Below the pieces are notes generated by a model. It saw only the letters and a list, made by a program, of their open reading frames with translations, had not been told where the DNA came from and made no database searches. From assembly GCA_963848135.1 (NCBI GenBank), contig CAWKCK010000017.1:898538-962537 (forward strand): 64,000 nucleotides of DNA. Direction: 5' to 3'. The position numbers were made by a program, and so were the translations under genes. Below, one piece after another: positions 9,886-59,525 of the stretch (within the stretch, counting starts at the first letter, position 1; the number at the start of each line of letters is the position of its first letter). Source of the DNA: an uncultured delta proteobacterium (GTDB lineage Bacteria > Desulfobacterota > Desulfobacteria > Desulfobacterales > SG8-13).

Positions 9886-9941
9886 CATCCGCTTCAACTT
9901 TAGACACCAAAGATGCCCCTCGTCCAGGTGTCGGAGCCTTA

Positions 9942-12101: not shown

Positions 12102-12105
12102 AAAA

Positions 12106-26688: not shown

Positions 26689-26692
26689 TTGA

Positions 26693-27655: not shown

Positions 27656-27706
27656 TGTTTGTAACCCGAACGATAAAAAGATCTCCTCGCACTGAGCGGA
27701 ACCAGG

Positions 27707-32760: not shown

Positions 32761-32806
32761 TTAGACATTTATCCTAAACAATAAATCAGAGGAATCGGGC
32801 TAAAAC

Positions 32807-33886: not shown

Positions 33887-33889
33887 CAC

Positions 33890-35305: not shown

Positions 35306-35319
35306 GGCTAAATTTTAAG

Positions 35320-37642: not shown

Positions 37643-37712
37643 AAAGAAACGATGAGGCGAAAACGTCAATTGATACGACAACCTGCAAACATATTATCTG
37701 GACCGGTAAAGC

Positions 37713-39095: not shown

Positions 39096-39160
39096 GGCGC
39101 GTGCAATGAAAAGGGGATCTTCGATCCATTTCGCTGAAACGAAGGAACTATTATTCGGGA

Positions 39161-40108
39161 ATGTCGATAGGCGACGGGGGCAAGCGATGGCTTGCCGAAA
39201 ATTTTGACCAACAGGTCAGGTTCGATGAGCCGATGTCCCGCCACACTTATTTCCGGGTCGGCGGACCAGCAGAGGCATTTGTAAGCCCACGCGACCTGGA
39301 GGGTCTTCAGCGGTTGGTTCGCTGGTGCACGGCTGAAGGTCACCCGACGCTGGTCATCGGCGGTGGATCGAATCTGCTAGTAAAGGATCGCGGCATCTCC
39401 GGGGTCGTTATCAGCCCTCGACGGTGCCTGAAGGGCATCAAAGTGGCGATGGCCGGCGAGGCGCCTGCGGTGGTGGCCCAGGCAGGAGTTAACCTGCAAT
39501 CCCTTTGCCGGTATTGCGCAAAGCAAGGACTGAGCGGAATGAACTTTGCGGTCGGTATTCCCGGAACGGTGGGCGGAGCGGTTGTGATGAACGCCGGAAC
39601 GACAATGGGAAGCATGGGGGATGTCATCGACTCCATTGAATGCCTGCTCTGGGATGGACGAATGGTAAGGTACGAGCGTAGCGTGCTCGAATTCTCCTAT
39701 AGAAGCCTATCCTGGAAAGAAAACCGGTCGGCCGGCTTTACTGAAACGCCGATCGTCATCAACGGCTGTTTTCGATTGAAAACGAGCGCTGCACCAATGC
39801 TGAAAAAAGAGGCAGAGACCTTGTTGAGATTGCGGACTGAAAAACAACCCGTCGATCAGCCCAGCGCCGGATGCTTTTTTAGAAATCCGGCCGACGGACC
39901 GGCCGCCGGATTTCTAATCGAGCGGTGCGATTTGAAGGGGTGTCGTATCGGTAACGCCCAGGTATCAACCAAGCATGCCAATTATATCGTCAATCTTGGC
40001 GGTGCCTCCGCCCGTGACATTTTATCCTTGGTGGAACTCGTCAGGGAAAAAGTGGCTGACCGATTCAAGGTCGATCTCGAACCCGAGGTGAAAATCGTTG
40101 GGCACTAA
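39161..40108 (+). CDS. murB: UDP-N-acetylenolpyruvoylglucosamine reductase MurB
   Basis: 315 aa with an FAD-binding domain (FRVGGPAE, GGGSNLL) and a C-terminal SAGCFFRNP motif. Confidence 0.9.
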   Translation: MSIGDGGKRWLAENFDQQVRFDEPMSRHTYFRVGGPAEAFVSPRDLEGLQRLVRWCTAEGHPTLVIGGGSNLLVKDRGISGVVISPRRCLKGIKVAMAGEAPAVVAQAGVNLQSLCRYCAKQGLSGMNFAVGIPGTVGGAVVMNAGTTMGSMGDVIDSIECLLWDGRMVRYERSVLEFSYRSLSWKENRSAGFTETPIVINGCFRLKTSAAPMLKKEAETLLRLRTEKQPVDQPSAGCFFRNPADGPAAGFLIERCDLKGCRIGNAQVSTKHANYIVNLGGASARDILSLVELVREKVADRFKVDLEPEVKIVGH

Positions 40109-41030
40109 ACGCATCAGGAAAAACCGTTTCCGGCGCAAACGAACAAAAGTAATGGGTCGTTTCCTGGGCGGTACCGTGAAAATTTTTGTCATCGGGGTCG
40201 GTATCTCCCTACTCAGTCTCTTTTTTATACTCTGTCACGATGTCATCACTCAATGGGAGGCTTTCAGGGTGGAAAGGATAACGCTGACAGGAAACCAGCG
40301 TTTGAATCGCGAGCAGGTTTGCGAACAGTCCCTCATACAATCGGGTGCCAACATCTTCGCCGTCAACTTGACCGCTGCCCGTAAAAGACTTCTGGCCCAC
40401 CCTTGGATCGCGGAGGCTTACATCCAGCGGGAAATACCGGATGGAATTCATTTCCACATCCGTGAACATCGGGCGATGGCCGTGATTGATCTTGGACGCA
40501 AATTTCTGCTCGATGATGCCGGGACGCTTTTCAAAGAGTTGGAGTCGAAAGATACTGAAAACCTACCGGTCGTCCATGGATTGAGTTACGCCGATGTGGA
40601 AATAGACCACGCGGCCTCCCGGCAACGGAAATCGACGGTACCACTCGACGGCGAGAAGAGGGATTTAAGACGTTACACCTCGCCATATGGCGCCCTTGTC
40701 ACCCTTTTGCAGATAGGCGACGAGATAGGCAGCGTTATTCCCAATACTCTGGTCGGCCGAATCGATGTGGACAGGGAAACCGGTATCACCGTCCATATGA
40801 CAGAGGGGCCCAGAATCGTCAGGCTGGGATTCGGCGAGTATGCGGCAAAATATGCCGTTCTGCAGCGCCTGCTGGCTTATCTGGCGCAGGGTCCCGTTGG
40901 AGACTGGCACAGGTTCGAGGCGGTCGATTTGAACAACCTGAACCGGATCGTCGTCCGACCGCTTTATGATTCGGACACCGATACGGGGTCGCAAAAAGAT
41001 ACCGGCGGCAAAGCGAGTAAGGTCTCATAG
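40098..41030 (+). CDS. ftsQ: Cell division protein FtsQ (POTRA domain)
   Basis: 310 aa with a basic N-terminus, one TM helix and a POTRA-like FRVERITLTGNQRL. It lies between murB and ftsA. Confidence 0.75.
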   Translation: MGTKRIRKNRFRRKRTKVMGRFLGGTVKIFVIGVGISLLSLFFILCHDVITQWEAFRVERITLTGNQRLNREQVCEQSLIQSGANIFAVNLTAARKRLLAHPWIAEAYIQREIPDGIHFHIREHRAMAVIDLGRKFLLDDAGTLFKELESKDTENLPVVHGLSYADVEIDHAASRQRKSTVPLDGEKRDLRRYTSPYGALVTLLQIGDEIGSVIPNTLVGRIDVDRETGITVHMTEGPRIVRLGFGEYAAKYAVLQRLLAYLAQGPVGDWHRFEAVDLNNLNRIVVRPLYDSDTDTGSQKDTGGKASKVS

Positions 41031-41143
41031 CCCCGTATCCGGTGGTTTTAATGGCTTGAACACCGAGAGATGATGTCGCGTCAGCCGGGCAATAGCGCGC
41101 GTTCACCGGCAGAGCGCAGTGACTTATTAAGGAGGTTGGATAA

Positions 41144-42370
41144 ATGCACGACCAGGGCAATATTATCGTCGGTCTGGATATCGGAACGACCAAAATCTGT
41201 GCCATCGTAGGTGAGGCCTCTGGTGGAAAATTGAACATCATCGGCATCGGCACGCATCCCTCCATTGGCCTGCGGAAAGGCGTGGTCGTAAACATCGAGT
41301 CGACCGTGGAGTCGATAAAAAAGGCGGTGGAAGAAGCCGAACTGATGGCCGGTTGTGAAATTTCGTCGGTGTACGCCGGCATTGCCGGTGGTCACATTAC
41401 AGGGTTCAACAGTCGCGGGATCGTAGCCATTAAAGGGCCGGAAATAACCGAACAGGATGTGGAGCGGGTTATTGATGCCGCCAGGGCCGTGGCGATTCCC
41501 ATGGACCGGGAAGTAATTCACGTCCTGCCCCAGGAATACATGGTCGACGATGAAGCGGGAATCCAGAACCCCGTCGGTATGGCCGGGGTGCGGCTGGAAG
41601 CCAAGATTCATATCGTAACCGGTGCCGTAACGTCTGCCCACAATATCGTTAAGTGTGCCAACCGCTCCGGTTTGGATGTCTGCGATATCGTTTTGGAATC
41701 GCTTGCCTCCGGAGAAGCCGTCTTGACCGAAGAAGAAAAGGATCTCGGTACGGCGCTCATCGACATGGGTGGCGGTACCACGGATCTGGCGGTATTTTCG
41801 GGCAAAAATATCAAACATACGTTCGTTCTGGCCCTCGGCGGCAACAATCTGTCCAATGATATTGCCATCGGATTGCGGGCCCCGCATGCGGAAGCGGAAA
41901 AGATCAAAACAAAATACGGCACTTGCCTCTCCAGTAATATCGGCAGCGACGATACCATCGAAGTTCCGGGAATGGGTGGACGGGAACCGCGAAAATTGCA
42001 GCGGCAGATTCTGGCCGAAATACTGGAGCCCCGTACGGAGGAGATTTTCACCCTGATCAATCGGGAAATTTACCGCGCCGGTCAGGAAAATTCGATCCCG
42101 TCCGGGGTGGTCCTCACCGGCGGCTCTTCCCTGTTGGACGGTGCGACCGAAATCGCCGAATCGATTTTCGGTCTTCCAACCCGGCTCGGTAAACCACGGG
42201 GGATCGGTGGCCTGGTCGATGTCGTCAATAACCCGATGTACGCCACCGGGGTGGGACTGGTCATCTATGGTGCCAGACGGCAAAACGCCAAGAAGTTCAG
42301 GATACGCGACAAGAATATTTTCAATCGCATTATGACGCGTATGAAACGCTGGTTTCATGAGGTGGTGTAG
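41144..42370 (+). CDS. ftsA: Cell division protein FtsA
   Basis: 408 aa, actin-like ATPase, with motifs VGLDIGTTKI, DMGGGTTD and VLTGGSSLL. The C-terminus is an amphipathic helix. Confidence 0.95.
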   Translation: MHDQGNIIVGLDIGTTKICAIVGEASGGKLNIIGIGTHPSIGLRKGVVVNIESTVESIKKAVEEAELMAGCEISSVYAGIAGGHITGFNSRGIVAIKGPEITEQDVERVIDAARAVAIPMDREVIHVLPQEYMVDDEAGIQNPVGMAGVRLEAKIHIVTGAVTSAHNIVKCANRSGLDVCDIVLESLASGEAVLTEEEKDLGTALIDMGGGTTDLAVFSGKNIKHTFVLALGGNNLSNDIAIGLRAPHAEAEKIKTKYGTCLSSNIGSDDTIEVPGMGGREPRKLQRQILAEILEPRTEEIFTLINREIYRAGQENSIPSGVVLTGGSSLLDGATEIAESIFGLPTRLGKPRGIGGLVDVVNNPMYATGVGLVIYGARRQNAKKFRIRDKNIFNRIMTRMKRWFHEVV

Positions 42371-42563
42371 GCGCCGGAAGGCGCCGCATTGAAATGGCCC
42401 GATATCAGGTAATCAGAGACGAGCAAAAATTGCTAATCCAACGATGCAGAACCCAGGTTCCAAAATCTTGCAAGGGCGGCGGTGCACCGGGATGCACTTT
42501 CGACAGCGATGATTCTGTCCCTGCGGCCTGCATCATCAAACATTCACATTAGGGGGGTGAAAC

Positions 42564-43748
42564 ATGTTTACTTACGTTGACAATGAAAAATCGGCAAAAA
42601 TTAAAGTCATCGGTGTCGGTGGAGCCGGCGGAAACGCCATAAACAACATGATCGCTTCGAAACTCCAGGGCGTCAAGTTTATCGCAGCCAATACTGACGC
42701 GCAGGCTCTCGAGACCTCCAACGCTCCGGTCAAAATCCAGCTCGGGGAGCAGCTCACCGAAGGGCTGGGCGCCGGCGCCAATCCCGAAGTCGGTCGACAG
42801 GCCGCACTTGAGAGCGAAGAGGTCATCCGGGAAGCTTTGAAGGACAGCCACATGGTATTCATCACCGCTGGCCTCGGCGGCGGTACGGGAACCGGAGCTG
42901 CACCGGTCATCGCAGATATCTGCAAAGATATTTGTGCGCTGACAGTCGCAGTGGTGAGCAAGCCCTTTTCCTTTGAGGGACGCAAACGTTCCCGCCAGGC
43001 GGATGAAGGCCTCCAATCCCTGCAGCAGGTTGCCGATACGGTGATTACGATTCCCAACGACCGATTGAGGGGTATTGCGTCAAAAAGCGCCACCATGATC
43101 GAAATGTTCCAAAGAGCCGACGAGGTCCTGCTCCACTCGGTTAAGGGAATTACGGACCTGATCATGATGCCGGGGTTAGTGAACCTGGATTTTGCCGATG
43201 TTAAAACGACGATGTCAAAAGCGGGCATGGCCATTATGGGCATCGGTAGCGCTACCGGCGAAAACCGTGCGGTACTGGCCGCTGAAAGAGCCATCTCACA
43301 TCCGCTGCTCGAGGATATTCCCATCAACGGCGCCAGAGGTGTGCTCATGAACATTACCAGCTCCAGCGATCTGACGATGGAAGAGATGACCGAGGCTTCG
43401 GACCGGATATACAATGAGGTCGGAGAGGATGCAGAGATCATTTGGGGGACGGTTGTCGACGACAGTCTGGGAGAGGAAATCCGCGTCACCCTGATCGCCA
43501 CCGGTATCGGCGGAAGTGCCGAACCTTTGGTCAAAGAAAATCGCCCCGATGTCAAACTTCGCGGTAAGGTTCGCGACCTTACCCCCGCAGACCTCCAGTA
43601 TGCCGAGGATCTCGAGGTCCCCACGTTCATTCGCCAGAAGGAGGCCGTGGGGGAATCCAACCGGGCGACCTATCGTGGATACCGCGGAATTGTTTTGGAC
43701 AATTCCGACCTGGAAGTGCCGACGTTTTTGAGACGCAAGGCCGACTGA
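42564..43748 (+). CDS. ftsZ: Cell division GTPase FtsZ
   Basis: 394 aa with the tubulin signature GGGTGTGAAP and the NTDAQAL motif. The C-terminal DLEVPTF[IL]R motif is present twice. Confidence 0.97.
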   Translation: MFTYVDNEKSAKIKVIGVGGAGGNAINNMIASKLQGVKFIAANTDAQALETSNAPVKIQLGEQLTEGLGAGANPEVGRQAALESEEVIREALKDSHMVFITAGLGGGTGTGAAPVIADICKDICALTVAVVSKPFSFEGRKRSRQADEGLQSLQQVADTVITIPNDRLRGIASKSATMIEMFQRADEVLLHSVKGITDLIMMPGLVNLDFADVKTTMSKAGMAIMGIGSATGENRAVLAAERAISHPLLEDIPINGARGVLMNITSSSDLTMEEMTEASDRIYNEVGEDAEIIWGTVVDDSLGEEIRVTLIATGIGGSAEPLVKENRPDVKLRGKVRDLTPADLQYAEDLEVPTFIRQKEAVGESNRATYRGYRGIVLDNSDLEVPTFLRRKAD

Positions 43749-43990: not shown

Positions 43991-45739
43991 ATGCGAAAAG
44001 ACCGTAAAACGACCAGGGGAGACCTGATCGGCGCAGAAATAGGTACAATACGAAAAAGCGGTCCCGGCCGCCTCAATATTGTGCTGGTCTACCCCAACAG
44101 TTACCACGTCGGCATGTCAAACCTCGGATTTCAGGTGGTCTACCGCCTGTTGAACCGGTTTGACGGTGTGGTCTGCGAAAGGGCCTTTTTACCGAACGAC
44201 GAAACGCAACCGGGGAACGACAGCAAAAGTCTCGAATCCGGAAAACCGCTGAAGGATTTTGATGTTATCGCGTTTTCGATCTCATTTGAAAACGACTATC
44301 CGAATGTGCTCAGAACGTTGGAAACAGCAGGCCTCCCCCTGCAATCACAATATCGCCATACCAAACACCCCCTGGTAATTGCAGGGGGAGTGGCCTGTTT
44401 CCTGAATCCCGAACCCCTATCGTCATTTATCGACTGCTTTCTGCTCGGTGAAGCCGAAGCCATGTTGGAAAATTTCTGCGCACGACTTGTGGCAGACGGC
44501 TTAACCGGAGGGGGGGATAAATGGTCGATCCTTTCGGCGTGCGCCCGCCGGATCCAGGGCGTTTATGTCCCGCGGTTCTATCGACCCGTCTATACGGACG
44601 GCGGGCTCTTGAAAGCCATAGAACCGCTGGCCGATGTCCCCGAAAAAGTACGCCGGACGTATATCGCCGATCTATCGACGGTACCGGCCTGCAGTACCGT
44701 GGTCACCCCTCATACCGCCTTCGACCGCACGTTTTTAATCGAAGTCGGTCGGGGCTGCCCCCACGGCTGCCGATTCTGCACCGCCGGTTTTATCTACCGC
44801 CCGCCCCGCTTTCGCCCCCTGTCACTTCTTCAGGCTTGCATACAGGAAGGCGCAGCCGTTACCGACCGAATCGGATTGGCCGGAGCAGCCGTCTCGGATC
44901 TCCCGGAAATCCGAGAACTTTGCAGCCAGGCCCAGCAGGGCAATATCCGCATGTCCTTCAGCTCCCTGAGAGCTGACGCCCTCGATGAAGACTTGCTGGC
45001 AGTCCTGGATCACAGCAACGTCAAAACCGCCACGATCGCACCGGATGCCGGCTCCGAAAGAATGCGGCGCGTCATCAACAAGGGTATTGACGAACAGGCG
45101 ATCCTGAGGGCCGCATCCCTCCTCGTGGCCAAAGGCATACCGAATCTCAAGCTCTATTTCATGGTTGGCCTGCCGACTGAAACAGGAGATGATGTCGAGG
45201 CCATCGTCACACTCTGTAAAAGGATTAAGCATGTATTTCTGCGGGAAAGCCGAAATAAAGGCCGCATCGGAGACATCACCGTCAGCCTGAATTCATTCGT
45301 GCCGAAACCGGTTACGCCCTTCCAGTGGACGGCCATGGACGACATCAGTACGCTCAAACAAAAGATTCGGCAGGTGAAAAACGGCCTTAAAAAAGTGCCC
45401 AACATTCGGGTGCATGCCGATATCCCGCGCTGGGCGTATATCCAGGCGCTTTTGTCCCGGGGGGATCGCCGGGTCGGCGACCACCTTCTTCTGGCCCACC
45501 GGAACGGACAGAATTGGCCCCAAACACTGAAAGAATCTCCTATCAATGCCGATTTCTACGTCCTTCGTGAGCGTGCGCTCTCTGAGAAATTGCCATGGGA
45601 CTTCATCGATCACGGTATCGAAAAATCCTACCTGGCCCGGGAATACCGCAAAGCCCAAAAAGGCCAATCATCACCACCCTGTCCGATGACTGACTGCACC
45701 CTCTGCGGGGTCTGCCATGATGAGGGCGCAGACAGTTGA
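43991..45739 (+). CDS. Radical SAM protein with a B12-binding-like N-terminal domain (uncharacterised rSAM family)
   Basis: 582 aa. The motif GRGCPHGCRFCTAG gives the CxxxCxxC cluster. The N-terminus reads LNIVLVYPNSYHVGMSNLG. The C-terminus has a cysteine cluster, CPMTDCTLCGVC. Confidence 0.8.
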   Translation: MRKDRKTTRGDLIGAEIGTIRKSGPGRLNIVLVYPNSYHVGMSNLGFQVVYRLLNRFDGVVCERAFLPNDETQPGNDSKSLESGKPLKDFDVIAFSISFENDYPNVLRTLETAGLPLQSQYRHTKHPLVIAGGVACFLNPEPLSSFIDCFLLGEAEAMLENFCARLVADGLTGGGDKWSILSACARRIQGVYVPRFYRPVYTDGGLLKAIEPLADVPEKVRRTYIADLSTVPACSTVVTPHTAFDRTFLIEVGRGCPHGCRFCTAGFIYRPPRFRPLSLLQACIQEGAAVTDRIGLAGAAVSDLPEIRELCSQAQQGNIRMSFSSLRADALDEDLLAVLDHSNVKTATIAPDAGSERMRRVINKGIDEQAILRAASLLVAKGIPNLKLYFMVGLPTETGDDVEAIVTLCKRIKHVFLRESRNKGRIGDITVSLNSFVPKPVTPFQWTAMDDISTLKQKIRQVKNGLKKVPNIRVHADIPRWAYIQALLSRGDRRVGDHLLLAHRNGQNWPQTLKESPINADFYVLRERALSEKLPWDFIDHGIEKSYLAREYRKAQKGQSSPPCPMTDCTLCGVCHDEGADS

Positions 45740-45911: not shown

Positions 45912-46352
45912 ATGAGTTCTAAAAAAGAACTAAAGCTTGCCTACGGAATGGCAATCGCGTTATTCGTTGTGGGTGTCGTAAGCTATGCATATACAGCCTT
46001 TTCAGCCAAACCACCCGAACTGCCGGTGCGCATTATGTATCATAGCGCAGCAGGCAAAGTTCTCTTCGATCATAAAACACATACAGCCGATACGGGATAC
46101 GGTTTTTCCTGTTATGACTGCCATCATCATCCGGAAGACGATGAGTCCGCCTTGCGTGCCTGCGGCGACTGTCACAACCTGCCGGTAGAAACGGGACAAT
46201 TTCCGGAATCATGCATCGAATGCCACGACCAGGACGAAATCGAAGGCTCGGAAGTCTCTAAAAGGGGCGATGCCTTTCATCTTCAGTGCATCAACTGCCA
46301 CAAAGACGCCGGTGCCGGCCCCGAAGACTGTAATTCCTGTCATGTGTTGTAA
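45912..46352 (+). CDS. Membrane-anchored multihaem cytochrome c (class III/c3-like, five CxxCH)
   Basis: The ATG at 45912 has a GAAAGGA SD. A TM anchor (LAYGMAIALFVVGVVSYAYTAF) is followed by CYDCH, CGDCH, CIECH, CINCH and CNSCH plus extra His residues for bis-His ligation. The ORF-track start at 45834 is probably spurious. Confidence 0.85.
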   Translation: MSSKKELKLAYGMAIALFVVGVVSYAYTAFSAKPPELPVRIMYHSAAGKVLFDHKTHTADTGYGFSCYDCHHHPEDDESALRACGDCHNLPVETGQFPESCIECHDQDEIEGSEVSKRGDAFHLQCINCHKDAGAGPEDCNSCHVL

Positions 46353-46428
46353 TGGAGTATACCGCGGTTGGCGATAGCGATTCTCCGCCGTGTTACATGT
46401 TTTGCGACCAAACGATAAAGGGTGAGAT

Positions 46429-47712
46429 ATGATACGAAAATCGTTTTTCGGCCTTGCTAAACCCCGCTTCGAATACGCAGCGCTCACCGGTGCAATGCCG
46501 GAAATCCTGTCCATCCCCCCACCGAAATCGGTAAGATTCTTAATCAATGGTTCCTTTGAGGCCAGAGGTAAGGAAGCCGTCAAACCGGGAGATGACGTCA
46601 TGCGCGGCCAAAAGCTGATTCACTCTGAGACTGGCGGCGCCTACGCGATGGCAACCGTCAGCGGAACCGTGACGGCAGTCATGCCGCATTCGGGTGATTT
46701 TGGAAAAGCCTGCACGGCGGTCACTATCGATGTGTCAGCGGTGGATGAAAGCGACGAACCCAGCGAAAATAATCAAAACCTGCCGACACTGGACACCGCC
46801 CTCGACACTTTGGCGTGTTTGCCAGGGGCCCCTCCGTTTGAAAAGTTCAGGAACCCGGAAACCCCGATTCACACGGTTGTCATTTATGGTGGTGATAGCG
46901 ATCTTCTGATCAACACCAACCAGATCGTCATTAAAACAAAGTTGGACGCGGTCAAAGCCGGAATCGCAGCCCTCAAGCATATCACCGGCGTGGAAAAGGT
47001 CATCGTGGCCATCCCCGGTGAAATCATTCAGGGGTACGGTCATATCGGTGCCGAAGTGAAAAACGTCGCTCTGGAATATCCGGCGGCATTTCCCCAGATG
47101 ATCATGAAAAATGCCCTCGGGCAGGTCGTACCGGCCGGTCAGACACCGGAAGATCTCGGTGTGACTTTCATGACGGCTGAAGCCGTGGCATCCCTCGGGG
47201 AGGCCGTTGAGATCGGACGTCATCCGGTCAGAAAACTTATTACGGTCGCCAACAAGGCCGGTGGCCTGAAGTTGGTATCGGCCGTCGTGGGAACCCCCAT
47301 CGGAGAAATTTTACATGCCGTCGGCATCACCATGGAAGAAAGTGACCGCCTTATCATCGGCGGGCCCATGACCGGAACGGCCATCTATTCCGAAGATTTC
47401 CCGGTCGAACCCGACACGAGTGCCATCATCGTGCAGGACAAGTCAGACGTATCCCACGTTTCCGACTATCCATGCATAAACTGTGGAGACTGCATCCGCA
47501 TATGTCCGGTCGATATTCCGATCAATATGCTGGTGCGTTTTCTCGAAGCCGGGCACTACGAGGATGCGGCGGATATGTATGATCTTTATTCTTGCATCGA
47601 ATGTGGTCTGTGCAGTTTTGTCTGTGTGGCAAAGATACCCATATTTCAGTACATCCGGTTGGCTAAATTCGAAATTAGCCGGGTAAATGCAGCGGAGGCG
47701 GTGAATGAATAG
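46429..47712 (+). CDS. rnfC: RnfC-like subunit with intact 2x[4Fe-4S] motifs but degenerate NuoF-type FMN/NADH motifs
   Basis: 427 aa, colinear with RnfC. The C-terminal CINCGDCIRICP and CIECGLCSFVC motifs are present. The glycine loop reads LPGAPPFEKF and the ECEPY site reads GDSDLL. Confidence 0.85.
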   Translation: MIRKSFFGLAKPRFEYAALTGAMPEILSIPPPKSVRFLINGSFEARGKEAVKPGDDVMRGQKLIHSETGGAYAMATVSGTVTAVMPHSGDFGKACTAVTIDVSAVDESDEPSENNQNLPTLDTALDTLACLPGAPPFEKFRNPETPIHTVVIYGGDSDLLINTNQIVIKTKLDAVKAGIAALKHITGVEKVIVAIPGEIIQGYGHIGAEVKNVALEYPAAFPQMIMKNALGQVVPAGQTPEDLGVTFMTAEAVASLGEAVEIGRHPVRKLITVANKAGGLKLVSAVVGTPIGEILHAVGITMEESDRLIIGGPMTGTAIYSEDFPVEPDTSAIIVQDKSDVSHVSDYPCINCGDCIRICPVDIPINMLVRFLEAGHYEDAADMYDLYSCIECGLCSFVCVAKIPIFQYIRLAKFEISRVNAAEAVNE

Positions 47713-48664
47713 TCGCAAAAAGTTCATTGTTTCACACGCGCCCTTCTGGCACTATGGCAGCAATATCAGCGAGCGCAGTTATCACACCATGCTCGCAGCG
47801 CTGCCGGCCGTTTTATTGGGCATGATTCAGTTCGGACTCCCGGCACTGGCCGTCGTGGCCCTTTCCGTATCGTCCGCTATTCTATGGGAATGGGCCTTTG
47901 CGGCCATCACGAAACGCCCCAACACGATTGGCGATGGCAACGCCGCGCTTATCGGCCTGTTGCTCGCCATGCTCATACCGGCCACGACACCCTGGTGGGC
48001 AGTGCTGACAGGCACTTTCATTGCCATTGTGATCTGTAAGCAAATTTTCGGTGGTATCGGCGGGAACTCCTTCAGCCCGGTGGTTCTGGCGATTGCCATT
48101 TTGGCCCTTTCCTGGAAGGATATTTTCGATTTCGATTCGGCGCTCGTCAATTACGACCTGGGGTTCACCATGTATCATCCTCTGGTGGCCCTGAAAGCCT
48201 TCGGATCGAATGTCGTCACCGATTTCTCGATTGGAGATCTGTTGCTAGGACGTCAGGTCGGGGGCATCGGCTCCACCTTTGGGTTGGGATTGATTCTCGG
48301 CGGTATCTACCTGATTCTCAGGGGATTTATTCGCTGGGAAATCTCACTCTCATTTCTCGTGGGTATCCTGGTATCGGCAACGCTTTTTCACATGGCTGAT
48401 CCAGCCAGGTTTGCGGGTCCGCTCTTTCATCTGCTGACCGGTTACACGCTGATCGGCGCCTTTTTTCTGGCCACCGAAGACTCGTCGTCACCAGTCAATT
48501 TTATTCCCATGCTGGTTTACGGGGCGGCCGGCGGGATAGTAACGGTCATGATCAGAAACATCGGCGCTTATGCCGAAGGCGTCATCTATGCCATTCTGGT
48601 GATAAACATGGTCAATCCGTTGCTCGATAAGATCCGGCCCAAAGCATTAGGAAAGGTAGTCTAA
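47705..48664 (+). CDS. rnfD: Rnf complex membrane subunit RnfD
   Basis: 319 aa, polytopic, NqrB/RnfD-like (for example FFLATEDSSSP and MVNPLLDK). It overlaps the rnfC stop by 8 nt. Confidence 0.9.
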   Translation: MNSRKKFIVSHAPFWHYGSNISERSYHTMLAALPAVLLGMIQFGLPALAVVALSVSSAILWEWAFAAITKRPNTIGDGNAALIGLLLAMLIPATTPWWAVLTGTFIAIVICKQIFGGIGGNSFSPVVLAIAILALSWKDIFDFDSALVNYDLGFTMYHPLVALKAFGSNVVTDFSIGDLLLGRQVGGIGSTFGLGLILGGIYLILRGFIRWEISLSFLVGILVSATLFHMADPARFAGPLFHLLTGYTLIGAFFLATEDSSSPVNFIPMLVYGAAGGIVTVMIRNIGAYAEGVIYAILVINMVNPLLDKIRPKALGKVV

Positions 48665-48665
48665 C

Positions 48666-49259
48666 ATGCGTGAAATGATCCAAATGGTCGTGGTCCTCAC
48701 CATCCTAAGCTGCGTTTCCGGCGGTCTGCTCGCCTACATCAAAAATGGAACCAAGGAACAGATCGAATACCAGCAACTGGTATTCGTGAAAGGCCCGGCA
48801 ATCCGTGCCATTCTAGAGGGATCCGCCAACGACCCCATCACCGACCGTTTCAAGATCGAAGACGGCGATACCGAGCGCAGCTTCTTCGCTGGCGTCTTCG
48901 ACGGTAAGGCCAACACCGTGACGTTCGAAACCTCAGGCAAAGGCTTCGGTGGCGACATCGGCGTGATGGTCGGTGTCAACCTTGACGATGACAAAATCGT
49001 TGGTGTTGGCGTCACCACCCACAGCGAAACACCGGGAATCGGTGCTTTAGCCAAAACCAATGTCGCGTTCAGCAGCCAGTTCAAAGGAATGCCGCTGAAG
49101 GATACGTTTAAGGTCAAGACCGACGGGGGCCAAGTGGACGCTTTGTCAGGGGCCACCATAACCTCACGGGGAGTGAGCGCTGCATTGACTGATGCCGTCA
49201 AAATGTACGAAAGCCTCAAACCCCAAATCGCCGACAAAATGAAGTCATTTTCCAAATAA
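48666..49259 (+). CDS. rnfG: Rnf complex subunit RnfG (periplasmic FMN-binding)
   Basis: 197 aa with an N-terminal anchor and the canonical flavinylation motif DALSGATITSRG. Confidence 0.9.
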   Translation: MREMIQMVVVLTILSCVSGGLLAYIKNGTKEQIEYQQLVFVKGPAIRAILEGSANDPITDRFKIEDGDTERSFFAGVFDGKANTVTFETSGKGFGGDIGVMVGVNLDDDKIVGVGVTTHSETPGIGALAKTNVAFSSQFKGMPLKDTFKVKTDGGQVDALSGATITSRGVSAALTDAVKMYESLKPQIADKMKSFSK

Positions 49260-49275
49260 ATAACGGGAGAACAAA

Positions 49276-49881
49276 ATGGCGCGATCGATCGCTCAGGAGT
49301 TTACCAAAGGCCTATGGGATGAAATACCGCCGTTTCGTCTGGTTCTGGGACTCTGTCCCGTCCTTGCGGTCACCAAAACAGTCGAGAACGGCTGGGGGAT
49401 GGGCCTGGCAACGACATTCGTGTTGGTGTGCTCCAATGTCCTGGTTTCTCTGTTGCGAAAAGCTATTCCATCCAAGGTCAGAATTGCCTGTTTTATCATC
49501 ATCATCGCTACGTTCGTGACCGTGGTCGAACTGGCCATGCAGGCGTATGCCTATCCCCTCTTCTTGAAACTGGGTATCTTTATCCCCCTGATAGTCGTCA
49601 ATTGCATCGTTCTGGGGCGGGCTGAAGCCTTCGCATCGAAAAACGGTTTTGTGCGATCCACTCTAGACGGTCTCGGTATCGGTGTCGGCTTCACCCTGGC
49701 GCTTGCGGCACTGGGCGCCGTGCGGGAGCTGCTCGGAACTGGATCTCTGACATTATACGAGACACCGATACAGATTTTTGGCTCATCCTATCAACCGTTT
49801 GGCTTTATGGTCGAGGCCCCCGGCGCATTTGTCGGATTAGGACTGATGCTGTGCATTATGAACATGCTGGGGAAAAAATAG
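49276..49881 (+). CDS. rnfE: Rnf complex membrane subunit RnfE
   Basis: 201 aa, NqrD/RnfE-like (GLCPVLAVT and VNCIVLGRAEAFA). Confidence 0.9.
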   Translation: MARSIAQEFTKGLWDEIPPFRLVLGLCPVLAVTKTVENGWGMGLATTFVLVCSNVLVSLLRKAIPSKVRIACFIIIIATFVTVVELAMQAYAYPLFLKLGIFIPLIVVNCIVLGRAEAFASKNGFVRSTLDGLGIGVGFTLALAALGAVRELLGTGSLTLYETPIQIFGSSYQPFGFMVEAPGAFVGLGLMLCIMNMLGKK

Positions 49882-49890
49882 GAGATCGTC

Positions 49891-50466
49891 ATGGGTGACT
49901 ACATCGTTCTTGCCATCAGCTGTATTCTCATTAACAATATCCTGTTGGCCCAATACCTGGGAAACTGCCCGTTCCTCGGTACATCCAAAAAAATGGAAAC
50001 CGCCGTTGGTATGGCCATGGCAGTGGTTTTTGTTCTGGTAATGGCGGGGATGATCACCTGGGTGGTCAACGCTTTTGTCCTGGTTAAATTCGGCATGGAA
50101 TACATGCGCACGGTGGCATTCATTCTTGTGATCGCCTCCCTTGTGCAATTCGTCGAGATGTTCCTGAAGAAAAGCATACCCGCACTTTATGCCGGACTGG
50201 GAATATTTCTGCCCCTGATCACAACCAACTGTGCGGTTATGGGTGTCTGCCTGATCAACATCAACGAGGAGTATAACTTCCTCCAGGCTCTGGTAACCTC
50301 TTTTGCCTATGCCGTCGGCTTCGGCCTAGCCCTGATTTTATTTGCCGGCGTCCGAGAGCGCATTCTGCTTGCCAGGGTGCCGCGACCGCTTCAGGACACC
50401 TCCATTGCTCTGGTGACTGCGGGTGTTTTGTCTCTGACCTTTTTTGCTTTCAAAGGCTGGGTGTAA
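49891..50466 (+). CDS. rnfA: Rnf complex membrane subunit RnfA
   Basis: 191 aa, NqrE/RnfA-like (NNILLAQYLGNCPFLG and ITTNCAVMGV). Confidence 0.9.
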   Translation: MGDYIVLAISCILINNILLAQYLGNCPFLGTSKKMETAVGMAMAVVFVLVMAGMITWVVNAFVLVKFGMEYMRTVAFILVIASLVQFVEMFLKKSIPALYAGLGIFLPLITTNCAVMGVCLININEEYNFLQALVTSFAYAVGFGLALILFAGVRERILLARVPRPLQDTSIALVTAGVLSLTFFAFKGWV

Positions 50467-50740
50467 AAGTTAATCTGAAACGATGCCGCGTGCTGCTGAA
50501 TCGGGATCGACGACACGACGGCACGCTGCTAATGTGACGCGCTACCTGGTAAATGCAACCAACTCATCCACTGCGCAACTCATCTCCAAAGTCCATCCAA
50601 ACAGCGGACACTCGTCCGGTTTCCTTAGTATTTACGCCATCCCAACAGAGGATTTGCATTTTCAGCAGGCCTGAGTGGGAGAACCAGGGTCGGTTGCTGT
50701 ATATCGCCACCGGGCAACCGTCAATCCGAGGGAGGTAGCG

Positions 50741-50769
50741 TTGACAGGACAACGGCAACTCGATTTAAT
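50741..50769 (+). promoter_or_regulatory. Candidate internal sigma70 promoter upstream of rnfB
   Basis: TTGACA (50741-50746), a 17-nt spacer, then TTTAAT (50764-50769). It sits inside the 397-nt rnfA-rnfB spacer, about 95 nt upstream of the rnfB start. Confidence 0.3.
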
Positions 50770-50863
50770 TTGTCGATGAACGGGATTCGGCCACAGCGAG
50801 TCGAGTTGAGAAACCGAACTGCTTGATTCAAAAACCATAAATGAACCGTTACCGGAGGACAAC

Positions 50864-52957
50864 TTGATAGAAGCCGTTCTTGTAATGTTGGGGTTGGGCG
50901 CTGCCTGCGCCTCGGCGCTGACAGTCGCGTCAAAAGTTTTTTATGTTTATGAAGATCCGCGCATCGCCGAAGTCGAGGGCATGCTGGCCGGAGCGAATTG
51001 TGGTGGTTGCGGCTACCCGGGCTGTTCGGGAGCGGCCGCTGCCGTGGTCGACGGCAAGGCACCGCCCAGCGTCTGCGTTGTGGCCGACCTTGAAACCGCG
51101 ATCAACGTCGCCGGGGTGATGGGAATCGACCCTGGCTCCGTGGAGCCCCTGAAATCCCTGAACACATGCCTGGGCGGTGACCGCGCGGATGACAAGTATT
51201 ACTACTCCGGCGTCCAAAGCTGCCGCGCGCTAAGCGCCCTGTATGGCGGAAAGCGTGAATGCCGGGTGGGGTGTCTGGGGTTCGGTGACTGTATCGCTTC
51301 GTGCCGGTTTGACGCAATCGATATGGGCCCGGATGGGTATCCGGTTGTCAACGAGATGAAGTGCGTCGGCTGCGGTGCTTGTGAAAAGGCCTGCCCGAAG
51401 TCGATCCTGCAGGTCCGCACCATGTCCCAACGCCTGCTGCATTTCAATCAGGAAGACGACGCCCTGGCGCCCTGTCAGCAGACCTGCCCCGCTGAAATCG
51501 ACATACCGCGATATATCGCCTGCATCAGGGATGGCGATTATGAAGCTGCCGTTAATACCATCCGCGAGCGCAACCCGCTGCTATTGACCTGTGGACGGGT
51601 CTGTCCGCACCCCTGTGAAGACTATTGCCGACGCGGCATCGAAGAAGAACCGGTATCCATCAACCAGTTGAAACGTTTTGCCGCCGACTACGAAATGAAT
51701 TCCGGCAGCAGGCTACCGATCTCCTGCGCAGCGGATACGGACAAGAAAGTGGCGATTATTGGCGGCGGCCCCGCCGGATTGACCTGTGCCTATTTTTTAA
51801 GGCGACTCGGCCATGGCGTCACGATTATCGATATGATGCCCAAATTGGGAGGAATGGTCCGCTACGGCATTCCCGAATACAGGCTGCCAAAAGAAGTATT
51901 GCAATGGGAGATCGATGGGATCCTGAACCTGGGGGTCGAACACCGCCCCAGCGTCAAGCTTGGCGAAGACTTTACGCTGGCCGATTTAGAGGCGGAAGGT
52001 TTTGACGCCGTTTTTATGGGAATCGGCGCCTGGAAGGATTACAGTTTGAGAATCGAGGGCGAAGATATGAAGGGGTGCTACACGGGCATCGATTTTCTGA
52101 CCAAATTTGCCCTCAACCAGCAATCCGATACGAACAAAAAGGATATTCCCATCGGCCGTAAATGTGCGGTGATCGGCGGAGGGAACACCGCCATCGATTG
52201 TGTTCGCACCCTGGTGCGATTAGGGGCCGAAGAAGTCAGCATTGTCTACCGGCGGACGCGAAAGGAAATGCCTGCCAACGACGTCGAAATTGTGGCCGCT
52301 GAACACGAGGGGGTCAAATTCCATTTCCTGGCCGCACCGACCCGCGTCGTCAGTGACGACGACGGCAATGCCACGCATCTGGAATTTCTAAAAATGGAGC
52401 TCGGTGAACCAGACGCCAGTGGAAGGCGGCGCCCGGTACCGGTAGAGGGTTCCGAAACCCTGATGGAAGCCGACATGATCGTGTCCGCCATCGGCCAGGG
52501 CCCGGATGTCGGCTTCATGGAAAAGGACAACCGCCTAAAGGAAATGAATGTCACCCGCTGGAGTACCATCGATGCCAATCCGGAAATACTCCAGTCGAAC
52601 ATCCCGAATGTTTTCGCTGCCGGTGACGCCTATACCGGTGCTTCCCTTGTCGTTGAGGCCATTGGCGGGGGCCGAAGAGCGGCGCGGGCGATTCATCTCT
52701 ACCTTGCCGGTCACGAGGTCGAACCCGTCTTGAAGTCGCTGCGCAAAAAACATATTCCTGAATCTCTGTTTGGGCAGGTAGACGGTATCCGTCCGACGGT
52801 GCGCGCAGTCATGCCCGAATTACCGGTGCAGGAGCGGATAAAAACCTTTGAAGAAGCCGATTTGGTACTTGAGGAAAAAGACGCCGTAGCGGAATCACGC
52901 CGCTGCCTCTCCTGCTGCCGATTATGCTATAATCCAGACATCAAACCTGCAGCGTAA
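50864..52957 (+). CDS. rnfB: RnfB fused to a GltD/NfnB/SudA-like NAD(P)H-dependent FAD oxidoreductase module
   Basis: 697 aa, TTG start with a GGAGGA SD 4 nt upstream. Residues 1-185 form an RnfB core: membrane anchor, CGGCGYPGC cluster and two ferredoxin motifs including CVGCGACEKACP. Residues from about 195 to 697 form the GltD-like part: CQQTCPAEIDIPRY...GRVCPHPCEDYC, VAIIGGGPAGLTCAY, AVIGGGNTAIDC and VFAAGD. Confidence 0.85.
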   Translation: MIEAVLVMLGLGAACASALTVASKVFYVYEDPRIAEVEGMLAGANCGGCGYPGCSGAAAAVVDGKAPPSVCVVADLETAINVAGVMGIDPGSVEPLKSLNTCLGGDRADDKYYYSGVQSCRALSALYGGKRECRVGCLGFGDCIASCRFDAIDMGPDGYPVVNEMKCVGCGACEKACPKSILQVRTMSQRLLHFNQEDDALAPCQQTCPAEIDIPRYIACIRDGDYEAAVNTIRERNPLLLTCGRVCPHPCEDYCRRGIEEEPVSINQLKRFAADYEMNSGSRLPISCAADTDKKVAIIGGGPAGLTCAYFLRRLGHGVTIIDMMPKLGGMVRYGIPEYRLPKEVLQWEIDGILNLGVEHRPSVKLGEDFTLADLEAEGFDAVFMGIGAWKDYSLRIEGEDMKGCYTGIDFLTKFALNQQSDTNKKDIPIGRKCAVIGGGNTAIDCVRTLVRLGAEEVSIVYRRTRKEMPANDVEIVAAEHEGVKFHFLAAPTRVVSDDDGNATHLEFLKMELGEPDASGRRRPVPVEGSETLMEADMIVSAIGQGPDVGFMEKDNRLKEMNVTRWSTIDANPEILQSNIPNVFAAGDAYTGASLVVEAIGGGRRAARAIHLYLAGHEVEPVLKSLRKKHIPESLFGQVDGIRPTVRAVMPELPVQERIKTFEEADLVLEEKDAVAESRRCLSCCRLCYNPDIKPAA

Positions 52958-52995
52958 ATCTCCCCAACGCCACCAAACAAAATATAGCTGCCCAG

Positions 52996-53023
52996 AAGGG
53001 CACCGTAGCAAAGCGGTGCCCTT
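52996..53023. terminator. Bidirectional terminator between convergent rnfB and rluD
   Basis: AAGGGCACCG-8 nt loop-CGGTGCCCTT, a 10-bp stem with a T-rich tail on the plus strand. Confidence 0.6.
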
Positions 53024-53028
53024 TCTAT

Positions 53029-54932: not shown

Positions 54933-56990
54933 TTAACCCATTTTTATCAGGATGGGCACCAGCAACAGCGCCACGACGTTCAGGATCTTGATCATCGGGT
55001 TGATGGCCGGTCCGGCGGTATCTTTGTAAGGATCGCCGACGGTGTCACCGGTAACGGCGGCTTTATGCGCATCACTGCCCTTACCACCCAGGTTGCCATC
55101 TTCGATGTACTTCTTGGCGTTATCCCAAGCCGCGCCACCCGTTGTCATGGAAATGGCCAAGAACAGACCGGTGACGATACTGCCGATCAGCAGACCGCCC
55201 AGGGCGATTTTGCCCAGGAGCAGGCCGACGATGATCGGTACGGCAACCGGCAGCAGGGCCGGAATGACCATTTCCTTGAGGGCAAACTTGGTCACGATGT
55301 CAACGCAGGCCGCGTAATCCGGTTTGGCGGTCCCTTCCATGATTCCCGGGATCTCGCGGAACTGCCGCCGGACCTCATCGACGACGGCACCACCGGCTTT
55401 GCCGACGGCCTTCATACAAATGGAACCAAAGAGGTAAGGCAGCATACCGCCGATGAAGAGACCGATGATGACGTTCACGTTGCTGAGATCAAAGCTCAAT
55501 TGCTCGCCACCACCATGGAGAGCGAACTCCTGGGTATACGCGGCAAACAGCACCAGAGCGGCCAGTGCGGCCGAGCCGATGGCATAACCTTTGGTGACGG
55601 CCTTGGTGGTGTTACCAACCGCATCCAGTGGATCGGTGACGGCACGCACACTATCATCCATCCCGGCCATTTCGGCAATACCACCGGCGTTGTCGGTGAT
55701 CGGACCGTAAGCATCGATGGCAATGACCATACCGGTCATGGAGAGCATCGACATGGCCGCCATGGCAATACCGTAAAGTCCCGCGAAATAGTAAGCCGTA
55801 CCGATGGCTAAACAGATGGCCAGCGCCGGAAGAGCGGTGGCTTCCATACTGACAGCCAGACCGGCGATGATGTTGGTGCCATGGCCGGTGGTCGAAGCTT
55901 CAGCCACGAATTTGACCGGTTTGCGAATGCCGGTGTAGTACTCGGTGATCATGACGATAATGACGGTCAGGGCCAGCCCGACCAGGGTCGAGTAATAAAT
56001 CGCCATCGGGGTGATCACCCTGACACCGGGAACCTCGAGTGTCGGCAGCATTTGCCGGCAGGCGATAAAGAAGGCAATCGCCGCTAAGATGGCCGCTCCG
56101 AACATGCCTTTGTACAACGCGCCCATGATGTATTCATTGGCACCCAGGCGAACAAACCCGACCGCGATGATCGATGCAACGATGGAAATTGCGCCCAGCA
56201 CCAGTGGAAATTCAGTGGCCATGAGATGATCGGGAAAGAGCAGGTTTCCCAACAACATGGCGGCCACCGCTGTAACGGCATATGTCTCGAAGAGGTCCGC
56301 TGCCATCCCGGCACAGTCGCCGACATTGTCGCCGACGTTATCCGCGATAACCGCCGGGTTGCGGGGATCGTCTTCGGGAATACCGGCTTCCACTTTTCCG
56401 ACCAGGTCAGCGCCGACATCGGCGCCCTTGGTGAAAATTCCACCGCCAAGACGGGCAAAGATAGAAATCAGGCTGCCGCCGAATCCAAGGGCCACCAGGG
56501 CGATAACCGCATCCCGAACGGGTGTACCGGTGTTAACAAGGATGGTATAAAAACCGGCCACGGCGGTCAGAGCCAGTCCGGCCACGATCATACCGGTCAC
56601 AGCGCCACCTCTGAAGGCCATGGACAGGGCCTTGGCTAGCCCGCCTTTGGCCGCTTCGGCCGTGCGCACATTGGCGATAACGGAAACCCGCATGCCGATG
56701 TAACCGGCCATAAACGAGGCCGCCGCACCAACGAGAAAACCGACGGCGGTTTTGATGCCAAGCGTAAAGGCGATCAAAACGAACAAAACAACGGCCGCAA
56801 GGCTCATGCTTTTCAACTGGCGATTGAGATAAGCGATCGCTCCGGTCTTAATTGCTTCGGCGATGTCAGTCATTTTTTCATCGCCTGCCGGCGAATTTTT
56901 TACCATGCTCGCGGTAATGATCGAGAATAGCACACCCGCGATGCCGACTAATGTACAAATTAACGGTAGGTAGTTCATCCTTCCCTCCAT
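54933..56990 (-). CDS. hppA: Membrane-integral ion-translocating pyrophosphatase
   Basis: 685 aa, about 16 TM helices, with motifs [21 protein letters not shown] and [14 protein letters not shown]. The [10 protein letters not shown] motif carries the Lys variant associated with K+-independent enzymes. Confidence 0.95.
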
Positions 56991-59450: not shown

Positions 59451-59525
59451 TGGCTGGGGCGGGAGGATTCGAACCTCCGAATGCAGGAACCAAAGTCCTG
59501 TGTCTTACCGCTTGACGACGCCCCA
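59451..59525 (-). tRNA. tRNA-Gln (anticodon UUG), CCA encoded
   Basis: The reverse complement folds by hand as a cloverleaf: acceptor TGGGGCG/CGCCCCA, anticodon stem CAGGA/TCCTG with loop CTTTGGT, T arm GGAGG-TTCGAAT-CCTCC, and 3' GCCA. Confidence 0.9.

Follow-up and report, generated by a model that had tools for sequence, protein, structure and literature searches.

In canonical Rnf complexes, electrons pass from ferredoxin through RnfB, RnfA/E, the flavin mononucleotide (FMN) of RnfG, the FMN of RnfD, riboflavin and the RnfC clusters to the FMN of RnfC and then to NAD+ (nicotinamide adenine dinucleotide), and ion transport is tied to the RnfA/E step (PMC9588780, PMC11889175). Another type, referred to as 'Rnf2' or the Desulfobacula toluolica Tol2-type Rnf of the Desulfobacterales, was described by Wöhlbrand et al. 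in 2016, as reported in PMC5109826 and PMC11887813. The RnfB of this type has about 700 amino acids (aa) with NAD-binding sites, and a 15-kDa cytochrome is encoded in the cluster (PMC5109826). It has been reported that Rnf2 belongs to the core genome of the Desulfobacteraceae and is abundant and constitutive in six strains (PMC11887813, 2025), and that Rnf2-type proteins are found by proteomics in cultured relatives (PMC5109826). A route from ferredoxin or NAD(P)H via cytochrome c3 to Qrc has been proposed (PMC11887813; PMC5109826). A 2025 review of RNF and NQR mentions neither the Rnf2 complex nor "sulfate", and presents the core as always containing two covalent FMNs. In this study, we analysed a seven-gene operon encoding a cytochrome c and rnfCDGEAB in an uncultured delta proteobacterium of the Desulfobacterales. 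The operon lies at positions 45912-52957 of a stretch of 64,000 nucleotides (nt) of contig CAWKCK010000017.1, hereafter the window. We found that the locus is an orthologue of Rnf2 and that the carriers of its outbound electron path are conserved, while the sequence motifs of the return path are changed at every flavin site.

The seven genes run in one direction, their junctions are short or overlapping, and each reading frame is intact, at the positions given by a first-pass annotation made from the sequence alone. The genes and the two parts of RnfB are as follows.

45912-46352, + strand: cytochrome c gene, membrane-anchored pentahaem c3/c7-type, 146 aa
46429-47712, + strand: rnfC, an RnfC variant of 427 aa with the RnfC_N barrel and two [4Fe-4S] motifs kept and the NuoF-like FMN/NADH motifs replaced
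47705-48664, + strand: rnfD, 319 aa, Pfam NQR2_RnfD_RnfE (E-value, E, 1.2e-84), without the covalent-FMN threonine
48666-49259, + strand: rnfG, 197 aa, periplasmic FMN subunit, Pfam FMN_bind (E 2.6e-20), flavinylation site intact
49276-49881, + strand: rnfE, 201 aa, Pfam Rnf-Nqr (E 4.8e-66)
49891-50466, + strand: rnfA, 191 aa, Pfam Rnf-Nqr (E 1.2e-52)
50864-52957, + strand: rnfB, 697 aa
50864-51433, + strand: RnfB core, residues 1-190, with a transmembrane helix, the PF04060 [4Fe-4S] domain and the first 2x[4Fe-4S] ferredoxin domain
51455-52957, + strand: NfnB/GltD/StnC-type module of RnfB, residues ~198-697, Fer4_20 (E 8e-25) and Pyr_redox_2 (E 1e-30)

The published description of Rnf2/Tol2 comprises an RnfB of about 700 aa, in which a normal N-terminus of about 200 aa is followed by a pyridine nucleotide-disulfide oxidoreductase domain, an RnfC that has neither the NADH-ubiquinone oxidoreductase (FMN) domain nor an SLBB domain, a gene for a small c3-type cytochrome within the cluster, and a host of the Desulfobacteraceae/Desulfobacterales. 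The window has all of these, and nothing substantive sets it apart from that description; it is an orthologue from an uncultured species. The first-pass annotation had implied that the combination of cytochrome, altered RnfC and fused RnfB was new. This did not hold, as the three features and the hypothesis of electron transfer from ferredoxin or NAD(P)H to cytochrome c3 are already in print for Rnf2 (PMC5109826; PMC11887813 supplement). It had also stated that it knew of no characterised enzyme with all three features, and in the literature searched we likewise found none, nor any biochemical or structural work on Rnf2. The loss of the RnfD threonine, the permuted StnC-like layout of the RnfB module, its NADPH-type motif and a promoter-like element before rnfB, all presented below, were not found in the literature consulted and are the additions of the present work.

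As the first-pass annotation had noted, the six rnf genes of the canonical complex are present in one operon in the order C-D-G-E-A-B, with matching domains; RnfD passes TIGR01946, and RnfG passes TIGR01947 and NF045876. The locus shares this order with the canonical Rnf of Acetobacterium woodii (9eri), Clostridium tetanomorphum (7zc6) and Azotobacter vinelandii (8ahx), together with the RnfA/E cysteines, the RnfG flavinylation site, RnfB residues 1-190, the N-terminal barrel of RnfC and the two RnfC [4Fe-4S] motifs. Unlike these complexes, it has neither the RnfC FMN/NADH motifs nor the flavinylation threonine of RnfD, it carries a flavin adenine dinucleotide (FAD)/NADPH module in place of the distal RnfB ferredoxin domains, and a cytochrome c gene is added.

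Other described systems resemble the locus in part. In Methanosarcina acetivorans, the gene for the cytochrome MmcA is co-transcribed with rnf, and RnfG has been proposed to donate electrons to the cytochrome (PMC4023990). This system shares with the window a multihaem cytochrome c gene next to rnf, and it does not use NAD(P) at RnfC (PMC4023990), but it is archaeal and no NAD(P)H module on its RnfB has been described; the window subunits score far below the Methanosarcina-specific NCBIfam models. The Rnf of Desulfovibrio alaskensis (Dde_0581-0587) also belongs to a sulfate reducer and has a cytochrome gene, for the decahaem DhcA, first in its operon. However, PMC11887813 assigns the Desulfovibrionaceae to the Rnf1 type, in which RnfB and RnfC resemble those of A. 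woodii. In the Na+-NQR, an NAD(P)H flavoprotein module feeds the side of NqrD/E, the equivalents of RnfA/E, and the RnfC homologue NqrA has lost its nucleotide and flavin site (PMC11889175), a logic that the window shares. The two differ in that NqrF is of the FNR type and unrelated to the NfnB-like module, the acceptor is a quinone, NqrB keeps its flavinylated threonine and NqrA has no iron-sulfur (Fe-S) clusters. The window encodes no NqrF, its RnfC keeps the Fe-S motifs, and none of the Nqr models comes near its cut-off; on the NqrA model NF003761 (PRK05352.1-4), RnfC reached 77.6 bits, between the values of two control RnfCs (49 and 103 bits). The resemblance to Na+-NQR is functional only. 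Finally, the unrelated two-subunit Nqr/Rnf-like complexes have, like the window, an RnfD-like protein without the flavinylation threonine and an RnfG-like protein that keeps its own, and they have been proposed to export electrons of NAD(P)H outward in one direction only (PMC10979944). There the NAD-binding domain is fused to the RnfD-like protein, whereas the window has seven genes including RnfA/E.

The flavin module fused to RnfB

RnfB residues 1-190 aligned end to end with residues 2-195 of A. woodii RnfB and 7-195 of C. tetanomorphum RnfB. This core consists of a transmembrane helix, the CGGCGxPGC cluster domain and the first 2x[4Fe-4S] ferredoxin domain. Across 80 RnfB sequences, no exception was seen at its cysteines 46, 49, 54, 71, 102, 120, 133, 137, 143, 147, 167, 170, 173 and 177; the cysteines of the cluster motifs of the module are likewise invariant in this set, as are 24 cysteines of RnfB as a whole. 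After residue 190, canonical RnfB continues with further ferredoxin domains, whereas the window RnfB continues with Fer4_20 and Pyr_redox_2. The first-pass annotation had read the protein as a core of about 185 aa followed by a GltD/NfnB-type module of about 500 aa, in good agreement with the borders determined here, and the profile-based domain annotation that it proposed as a check returned these same two domains in the module.

The sequence of the module contains what is expected of an NfnB/GltD-type protein: two [4Fe-4S] motifs in Fer4_20, an FAD motif of the GxGxxG type (GGGPAG, 51761-51778) and an NADPH motif of the GxGxxA type with YRR. Two GxGxxG sites had been claimed. The FAD site agrees with this; the second site is GGGNTA (52175-52192), a GxGxxA motif that is usual at that place in GltD/NfnB homologues. 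It is followed by IVYRRTRKEMPA; YRRTRKEMPA lies at 52247-52276. GGGNTA together with IVYRRTRKEMPA is essentially identical to the NADPH site of Pyrococcus furiosus and Thermotoga maritima NfnB, and the YRR triplet is invariant in 80 of 80 orthologues. Because the motif is of the NfnB type with an invariant YRR, the module is predicted to use NADPH rather than NADH. RnfB carries the only pyridine-nucleotide site that is recognisable in the operon.

The best solved relatives of the module are 9bov_A (E 1.6e-125), 9n5u_A, 8oh5_C and the NfnB chains 5jca_L and 4ylf_B, with E values from 1e-95 to 1e-125 among the solved relatives; GltD itself is not among the best. The chain 9n5u_A was deposited as "NfnA" and 8oh5_C as "Formate dehydrogenase-O, major subunit"; we take the latter to be StnC, the large subunit of the Sporomusa ovata Stn transhydrogenase. 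NfnB, GltD, the N-terminal module of StnC (8oh5_C), 9bov_A and 9n5u_A all share two [4Fe-4S] clusters and FAD and NADPH sites with the window module. The last ~50 residues of RnfB (…ERIKTFEE…RRCLSCCRLC, with CLSCCRLC at 52904-52927) aligned with the N-terminal segment of NfnB and GltD. The same segment also follows the flavin domains in 9bov_A, 9n5u_A and 8oh5_C, which, like the window, have the first helix and its CxxC at the C-terminal end. Since a segment that is N-terminal in NfnB and GltD stands at the C-terminal end here, the module is circularly permuted and StnC-like. The first [4Fe-4S] cluster is most likely made up of these C-terminal cysteines and those of APCQQTCP. Unlike NfnB, GltD and StnC, which belong to soluble transhydrogenases or glutamate synthase, the window module is fused behind a membrane-anchored RnfB core.

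We then considered how widely the fusion occurs. A protein search returned more than 120 clusters of long RnfB (680-724 aa, 72-90% identity, 97-100% coverage), all of which carry PF04060, Fer4_20 and Pyr_redox_2. When one genome was scanned for each species, a long-rnfB locus turned up in 313 species genomes, including complete chromosomes such as that of Desulfonema magnum. Eighty of the 313 loci were kept for comparison, 64 of them with more than 5.3 kb of upstream sequence. In 63 of these 64, the cytochrome gene and rnfC-D-G-E-A stand upstream of the long rnfB in that order, which is the co-occurrence that the first-pass annotation had suggested surveying. The window RnfB is 68-96% identical to 79 Desulfobacterales orthologues; with the RnfB of the cultured Desulfonema magnum (L038), it shares 72% identity. 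Apart from Desulfonema magnum, all of the nearest genomes are metagenome-assembled genomes (MAGs) of Desulfobacterales/Desulfobacteraceae; the window and L034, from the uncultured Desulfobacterales MAG MFD03551.bin.2.4, are syntenic with 89.7% nucleotide identity over 20 kb. The same architecture was found down to 35-40% RnfD identity (L081, L084). The more than 120 clusters, the 313 genomes and the conserved gene order indicate that the fusion is genuine. The first-pass annotation had named an assembly join of two genes among the findings that would overturn its reading, and the recurrence of the full-length fusion in these clusters and genomes speaks against such a join.

The exception among the 64 loci, L073, has a lone long rnfB (10001-12067) among CheA-like, Band 7 and DUF218 genes, and no rnfCDGEA genes were found within 10 kb upstream. 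It is a split operon rather than a new partner. In L026, no rnf genes were found in the available 3.8 kb of upstream sequence. The distant Rnf2-type locus L081 has an eight-haem cytochrome upstream, and its RnfB (9865-11955) is without the YRR NADPH motif; a second, four-haem cytochrome gene (12015-12554) directly follows rnfB and is itself followed by a gene for a [NiFe]-hydrogenase small subunit.

That the long rnfB might be an assembly join or a frameshift, or that rnfC and rnfD might be pseudogenes, was also considered. Apart from the unusual gene length, nothing spoke for an artefact or decay. With 313 genomes, invariant cysteines, intact frames and conserved RnfC motifs, we rejected this explanation as having practically no chance of being correct.

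Outbound and return electron carriers

The carriers between RnfB and the periplasm are preserved. Of 68 RnfE sequences, 67 have Cys27 and all 68 have Cys110; of 72 RnfA sequences, 71 have Cys26 and all 72 have Cys114. By homology, these cysteines would be the ligands of the membrane [2Fe-2S] cluster. RnfG contains the motif DALSGATIT (49146-49163), in which Thr164 is conserved in 66 of 66 sequences. The outbound half, represented by the RnfA/E cysteines and the RnfG threonine, is thus essentially invariant. RnfG also scored 252 bits, against a cut-off of 205, on the NCBIfam 'exception' model RnfG_DVU2794, which is based on Desulfovibrio vulgaris DVU2794. This pass hints that the RnfG proteins of cytochrome-linked Rnf complexes of sulfate reducers may form a subgroup of their own.

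RnfD is changed at its flavin site. In canonical RnfD, FMN is attached by a phosphoester bond to a threonine, T156 in the motif TTATPL of A. woodii (PMC11889175), and the motif D-x-x-S/T-x-A-T-P-L was used here as the criterion for flavinylation. In the window, His158 of FTMYHPL (48164-48184, residues 154-160) stands at the position of T156. Among 67 close-family sequences (the window and 66 orthologues), the residue is Y in 47, F in 7, A in 5, H in 3, D in 2, and E, Q and S in one each, so that threonine was found in none and serine in only one. The riboflavin ligand D249 is replaced by Glu in 66 of 67 (window 48470-48493). In the literature consulted, PMC5109826 and PMC11887813 included, no mention of this threonine loss was found.

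The survey of RnfD was extended by a HMMER search of 1.84 billion cluster representatives, from which full-length representatives of 50% clusters were compared. Neither Thr nor Ser was present at the site in 21 of the 29 nearest representatives, compared with 9 of the 98 more distant ones. Two distant RnfDs without the threonine (40% and 35% identity; L081 and L084) come from loci of the order cytochrome-C-D-G-E-A-B in which the RnfBs have 696 and 699 aa and the RnfCs lack Complex1_51K. An RnfD with the threonine (L087) stands in a locus with a canonical full RnfC, a 263-aa RnfB and no cytochrome. These results indicate that the loss of the RnfD threonine travels with the Rnf2 architecture. 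Within that architecture, the loss may follow either the cytochrome or the changes in RnfC and RnfB.

RnfC is colinear over its full length with the solved chains 8ahx_C, 7zc6_C and 9eri_C in HMMER alignments, as the first-pass annotation had described, and the positions that it had reported as replaced are indeed replaced. GLGGAxFP is changed to CLPGA--PPF (CLPGAPPF, 46816-46839), NGAECEPYLT to YGGDSDLLIN (46885-46923, YGGDSDLLINTNQ), and YPQGAEKQLI to EYPAAFPQMIM (47074-47106). We take these three motifs to line the FMN/NADH pocket, as in the homologous NuoF fold. The apparent loss of the pocket agrees with the profile scores. Complex1_51K scored 29.3 bits, below the Pfam cut-off of 31.2, and neither an SLBB match in Pfam nor a NuoF match among the NCBIfam profiles was found. 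On TIGR01945, the window RnfC scored 199 bits against a cut-off of 246, compared with 481 and 531 bits for the control RnfCs of A. woodii and C. tetanomorphum, both of which match NuoF models. Judged by these motifs, RnfC is without the NuoF-like FMN/NADH site and departs from the canonical subunit.

The Fe-S part of RnfC is kept. The two cluster motifs lie at 47473-47508 and 47593-47628 with all eight cysteines present. Both had been described as CxxCxxCxxxCP; this is right for the cysteines, but the second motif ends in CV, not CP (CIECGLCSFVCV). Each of the eight cysteines is kept in about 90-100% of 67 orthologues, and they persist where RnfD identity is only 35-40%. The replacement motifs are also conserved across the 67 orthologues, in the forms PGxPP, GxDxDLL..TNQ and EYPAALP. 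Of the subunits, RnfC evolves fastest; its median identity is 49%, compared with 72-81% for RnfB, RnfE and RnfA. The conservation of both the replacement motifs and the cysteines indicates that RnfC has been remodelled, and is neither decaying nor a dead scaffold. By its sequence, then, the return half is changed at every flavin site: the RnfD threonine, the RnfD Asp to Glu, and the FMN/NADH motifs of RnfC.

The cytochrome gene ends 76 nt before rnfC. Its product has five CxxCH motifs (residues 67, 84, 101, 126 and 140) and a single N-terminal hydrophobic helix at about residues 7-31, and it matches Pfam Cytochrom_CIII (E 3.6e-10) and Cytochrome_C7 (E 1.9e-6), so that the membrane-anchored five-haem cytochrome of the first-pass annotation was confirmed. 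It did not pass the equivalog NF045722 for the TmcA-type tetrahaem cytochrome c3 (53.5 bits against a cut-off of 114), having five CxxCH motifs and not four haems, and belongs only to the broader class III fold. Of 64 related loci, 63 have a homologue of this gene next to rnfC on its upstream side, and five haem motifs are present in 52 of 65 cytochromes of related loci. The cytochrome is a putative redox partner of the complex.

Operon boundaries, the rnfA-rnfB spacer and neighbouring genes

The genes rnfC and rnfD overlap by 8 nt, whereas rnfA and rnfB are separated by a spacer of 397 nt (50467-50863), on which the first-pass annotation did not remark and which ranges from 9 to 400 nt across relatives. 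Two non-coding elements were noted.

50741-50769, + strand: promoter-like element TTGACA-17 nt-TTTAAT, based on cross-species conservation only
52995-53024, + strand: terminator-like hairpin with a 12-bp stem including 7 GC pairs, followed by a T-rich tail

About 95 nt separate the promoter-like element from the rnfB start downstream. The window and its eight nearest relatives (L034, L001, L004, L002, L007, L006, L028 and L003) all have TTGACA unchanged, with a TTTAAT-like hexamer at the same distance of 17 nt, and the rest of the spacer is poorly conserved. A consensus promoter scan, whose rule demands A at position 2 of the second hexamer, did not list the element. The conservation suggests that, in this sub-clade, rnfB may be transcribed with a long leader from a promoter of its own. 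No known RNA was found in the spacer by a search of the whole window at the Rfam gathering thresholds, which returned only a tRNA elsewhere. The rnfB gene starts with TTG, and GGAGGA ends 5 nt before it. Open reading frames of 61-63 aa also occur in the spacer, where sequence outside the promoter-like motif is poorly conserved. The terminator-like hairpin would close the operon between rnfB and a convergent pseudouridine synthase gene.

Immediately upstream of the region are the Pfam-verified genes for FtsA (41144-42370) and FtsZ (42564-43748), which end what looks like a long cell-division and cell-wall cluster (window 26236-43748). A gene on the + strand for a 582-aa radical SAM protein (43991-45739), with a Radical_SAM_N2 N-terminal domain and a weak B12-binding-like match, adjoins the cytochrome gene on its upstream side. 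Two kb downstream of the operon, a gene on the - strand encodes a membrane H+-translocating pyrophosphatase (54933-56990; Pfam H_PPase, 877 bits), with RluD-like pseudouridine synthase and CarD genes between it and the operon. Genes for peptidyl-tRNA hydrolase, PRPP synthase and a tRNA (59454-59525) lie beyond the pyrophosphatase.

A candidate electron path and its alternatives

An intact outbound half with an NADPH/FAD entry, altered return flavin sites and an added multihaem cytochrome together point to a one-way path. We therefore tentatively favour, with not quite half of our confidence, the view that Rnf2 may be a one-way, ion-pumping NADPH/ferredoxin:cytochrome c oxidoreductase, an Rnf-derived ion pump in which the electron loop would be opened into a one-way path. 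Electrons would enter at the cytoplasmic RnfB, from NADPH via the fused FAD and 2x[4Fe-4S] NfnB-like module, and ferredoxin would probably also donate, at the retained RnfB ferredoxin domain. They would cross the membrane through the RnfA/E [2Fe-2S] cluster to the covalent FMN of the periplasmic RnfG; in canonical Rnf, export of Na+ or H+ is driven at this stage. RnfG would hand them to the membrane-anchored pentahaem cytochrome c, which would pass them on to the periplasmic and membrane redox network, with Qrc and menaquinone as the literature proposes. The machine could also run in reverse. The first-pass annotation had proposed that the nucleotide site had moved from RnfC to RnfB in a cytochrome-linked enzyme. 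The anatomical part of this proposal fits the data, with the only recognisable site on RnfB, the RnfC motifs and the RnfD threonine lost, and the cytochrome kept in 63 of 64 loci; its mechanistic part is still an inference and gives no role to the RnfC clusters.

Several points weigh against a one-way pump. The step from NADPH to a low-potential c3-type cytochrome offers a small redox drop for an ion pump. The ferredoxin and NADPH sites would lie on one Fe-S chain, with the risk of an uncoupled ferredoxin:NADP+ short circuit that must be avoided. The conservation of RnfC implies that it is selected for a redox or docking role, which this model leaves unexplained, and a non-covalent FMN in RnfD may be compatible with the sequence. 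DhcA, whose gene heads the rnf operon of D. alaskensis, is dispensable for Rnf-dependent growth (PMC4215793). The cluster-encoded cytochrome was seen only in lactate-grown D. multivorans cells (PMC5109826), and the 2025 proteomics did not detect these cytochromes (PMC11887813).

Some of these points would be accommodated if the U-shaped path were retained. Rnf2 would then be an ion-pumping ferredoxin:NAD(P)+ oxidoreductase in which the RnfB-tethered FAD/NADPH module docks on RnfC, replaces its FMN/NADH site and serves as a converter between one-electron and two-electron steps, with the cytochrome as an accessory. The eight near-invariant RnfC cysteines and the replacement motifs, conserved as a docking surface would be, agree with such docking, as do the firm association of RnfB with RnfC in solved complexes (PMC9588780; PMC11889175) and the dispensability of DhcA, and the well-understood energetics of ferredoxin to NAD(P)+ would be preserved. 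However, the return path that it needs is weakened across the family by the loss of the RnfD threonine and the change of D249 to Glu. The NfnB cassette also stands directly behind the RnfB ferredoxin domain, as in StnC and related proteins, which suggests wiring to the RnfB chain, and the cytochrome gene is kept not only in 63 of 64 loci but also in distant lineages. We consider this arrangement unlikely. The anatomy of the one-way pump would be identical if the complex mainly worked in the opposite direction, with the ion gradient driving electrons from a periplasmic cytochrome pool (H2, formate, or menaquinol via Qrc) to NADP+, ferredoxin or both. Rnf complexes are reversible (PMC9588780, PMC11889175), and the Desulfovibrio Rnf is required for growth on H2 and formate (PMC4215793). 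The Desulfobacteraceae, however, are mostly complete oxidisers, which make ferredoxin and NAD(P)H in the cytoplasm and need to deliver electrons outward; they form Rnf2 constitutively when growing on organic substrates and have few hydrogenases (PMC11887813). Inward operation as the main function is thus, in our judgement, quite unlikely.

The relatives of the module raise one further option, membrane-coupled bifurcation. The NfnB-type FAD would split the electrons of NADPH, sending one via low-potential clusters to ferredoxin and the other by way of RnfA/E and RnfG to the cytochrome, which has the higher potential, with coupled ion movement; the reverse direction would be confurcation, and the old RnfD/RnfC return path would be repurposed. 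Among solved proteins, the module is closest to NADPH-binding subunits of bifurcating enzymes (StnC 8oh5_C, NfnB 5jca_L and 4ylf_B, and 9n5u_A), which share its permuted layout and its NADPH motif. Nevertheless, the same fold is a plain NADPH-to-Fe-S wire in the glutamate synthase subunit GltD and in dihydropyrimidine dehydrogenase, and no NfnA-like high-potential partner is encoded in the operon. We regard bifurcation as improbable here. An RnfD without covalent flavin in a strictly one-way NADPH/ferredoxin:cytochrome c pump may be the less exotic version of the same idea.

Much of the organic carbon of marine sediments is oxidised by the Desulfobacteraceae, and Rnf2 is a leading candidate for the link between cytoplasmic ferredoxin or NAD(P)H and the membrane machinery of sulfate reduction in these complete oxidisers. 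The locus itself adds one more orthologue to the family, and the RnfD result and the assignment of the RnfB module as NADPH- and StnC-type are small, testable additions. The residue-level picture predicts for Rnf2 an intact outbound half, alteration of all three return flavin sites, an NADPH-type motif and a StnC-like permuted layout.

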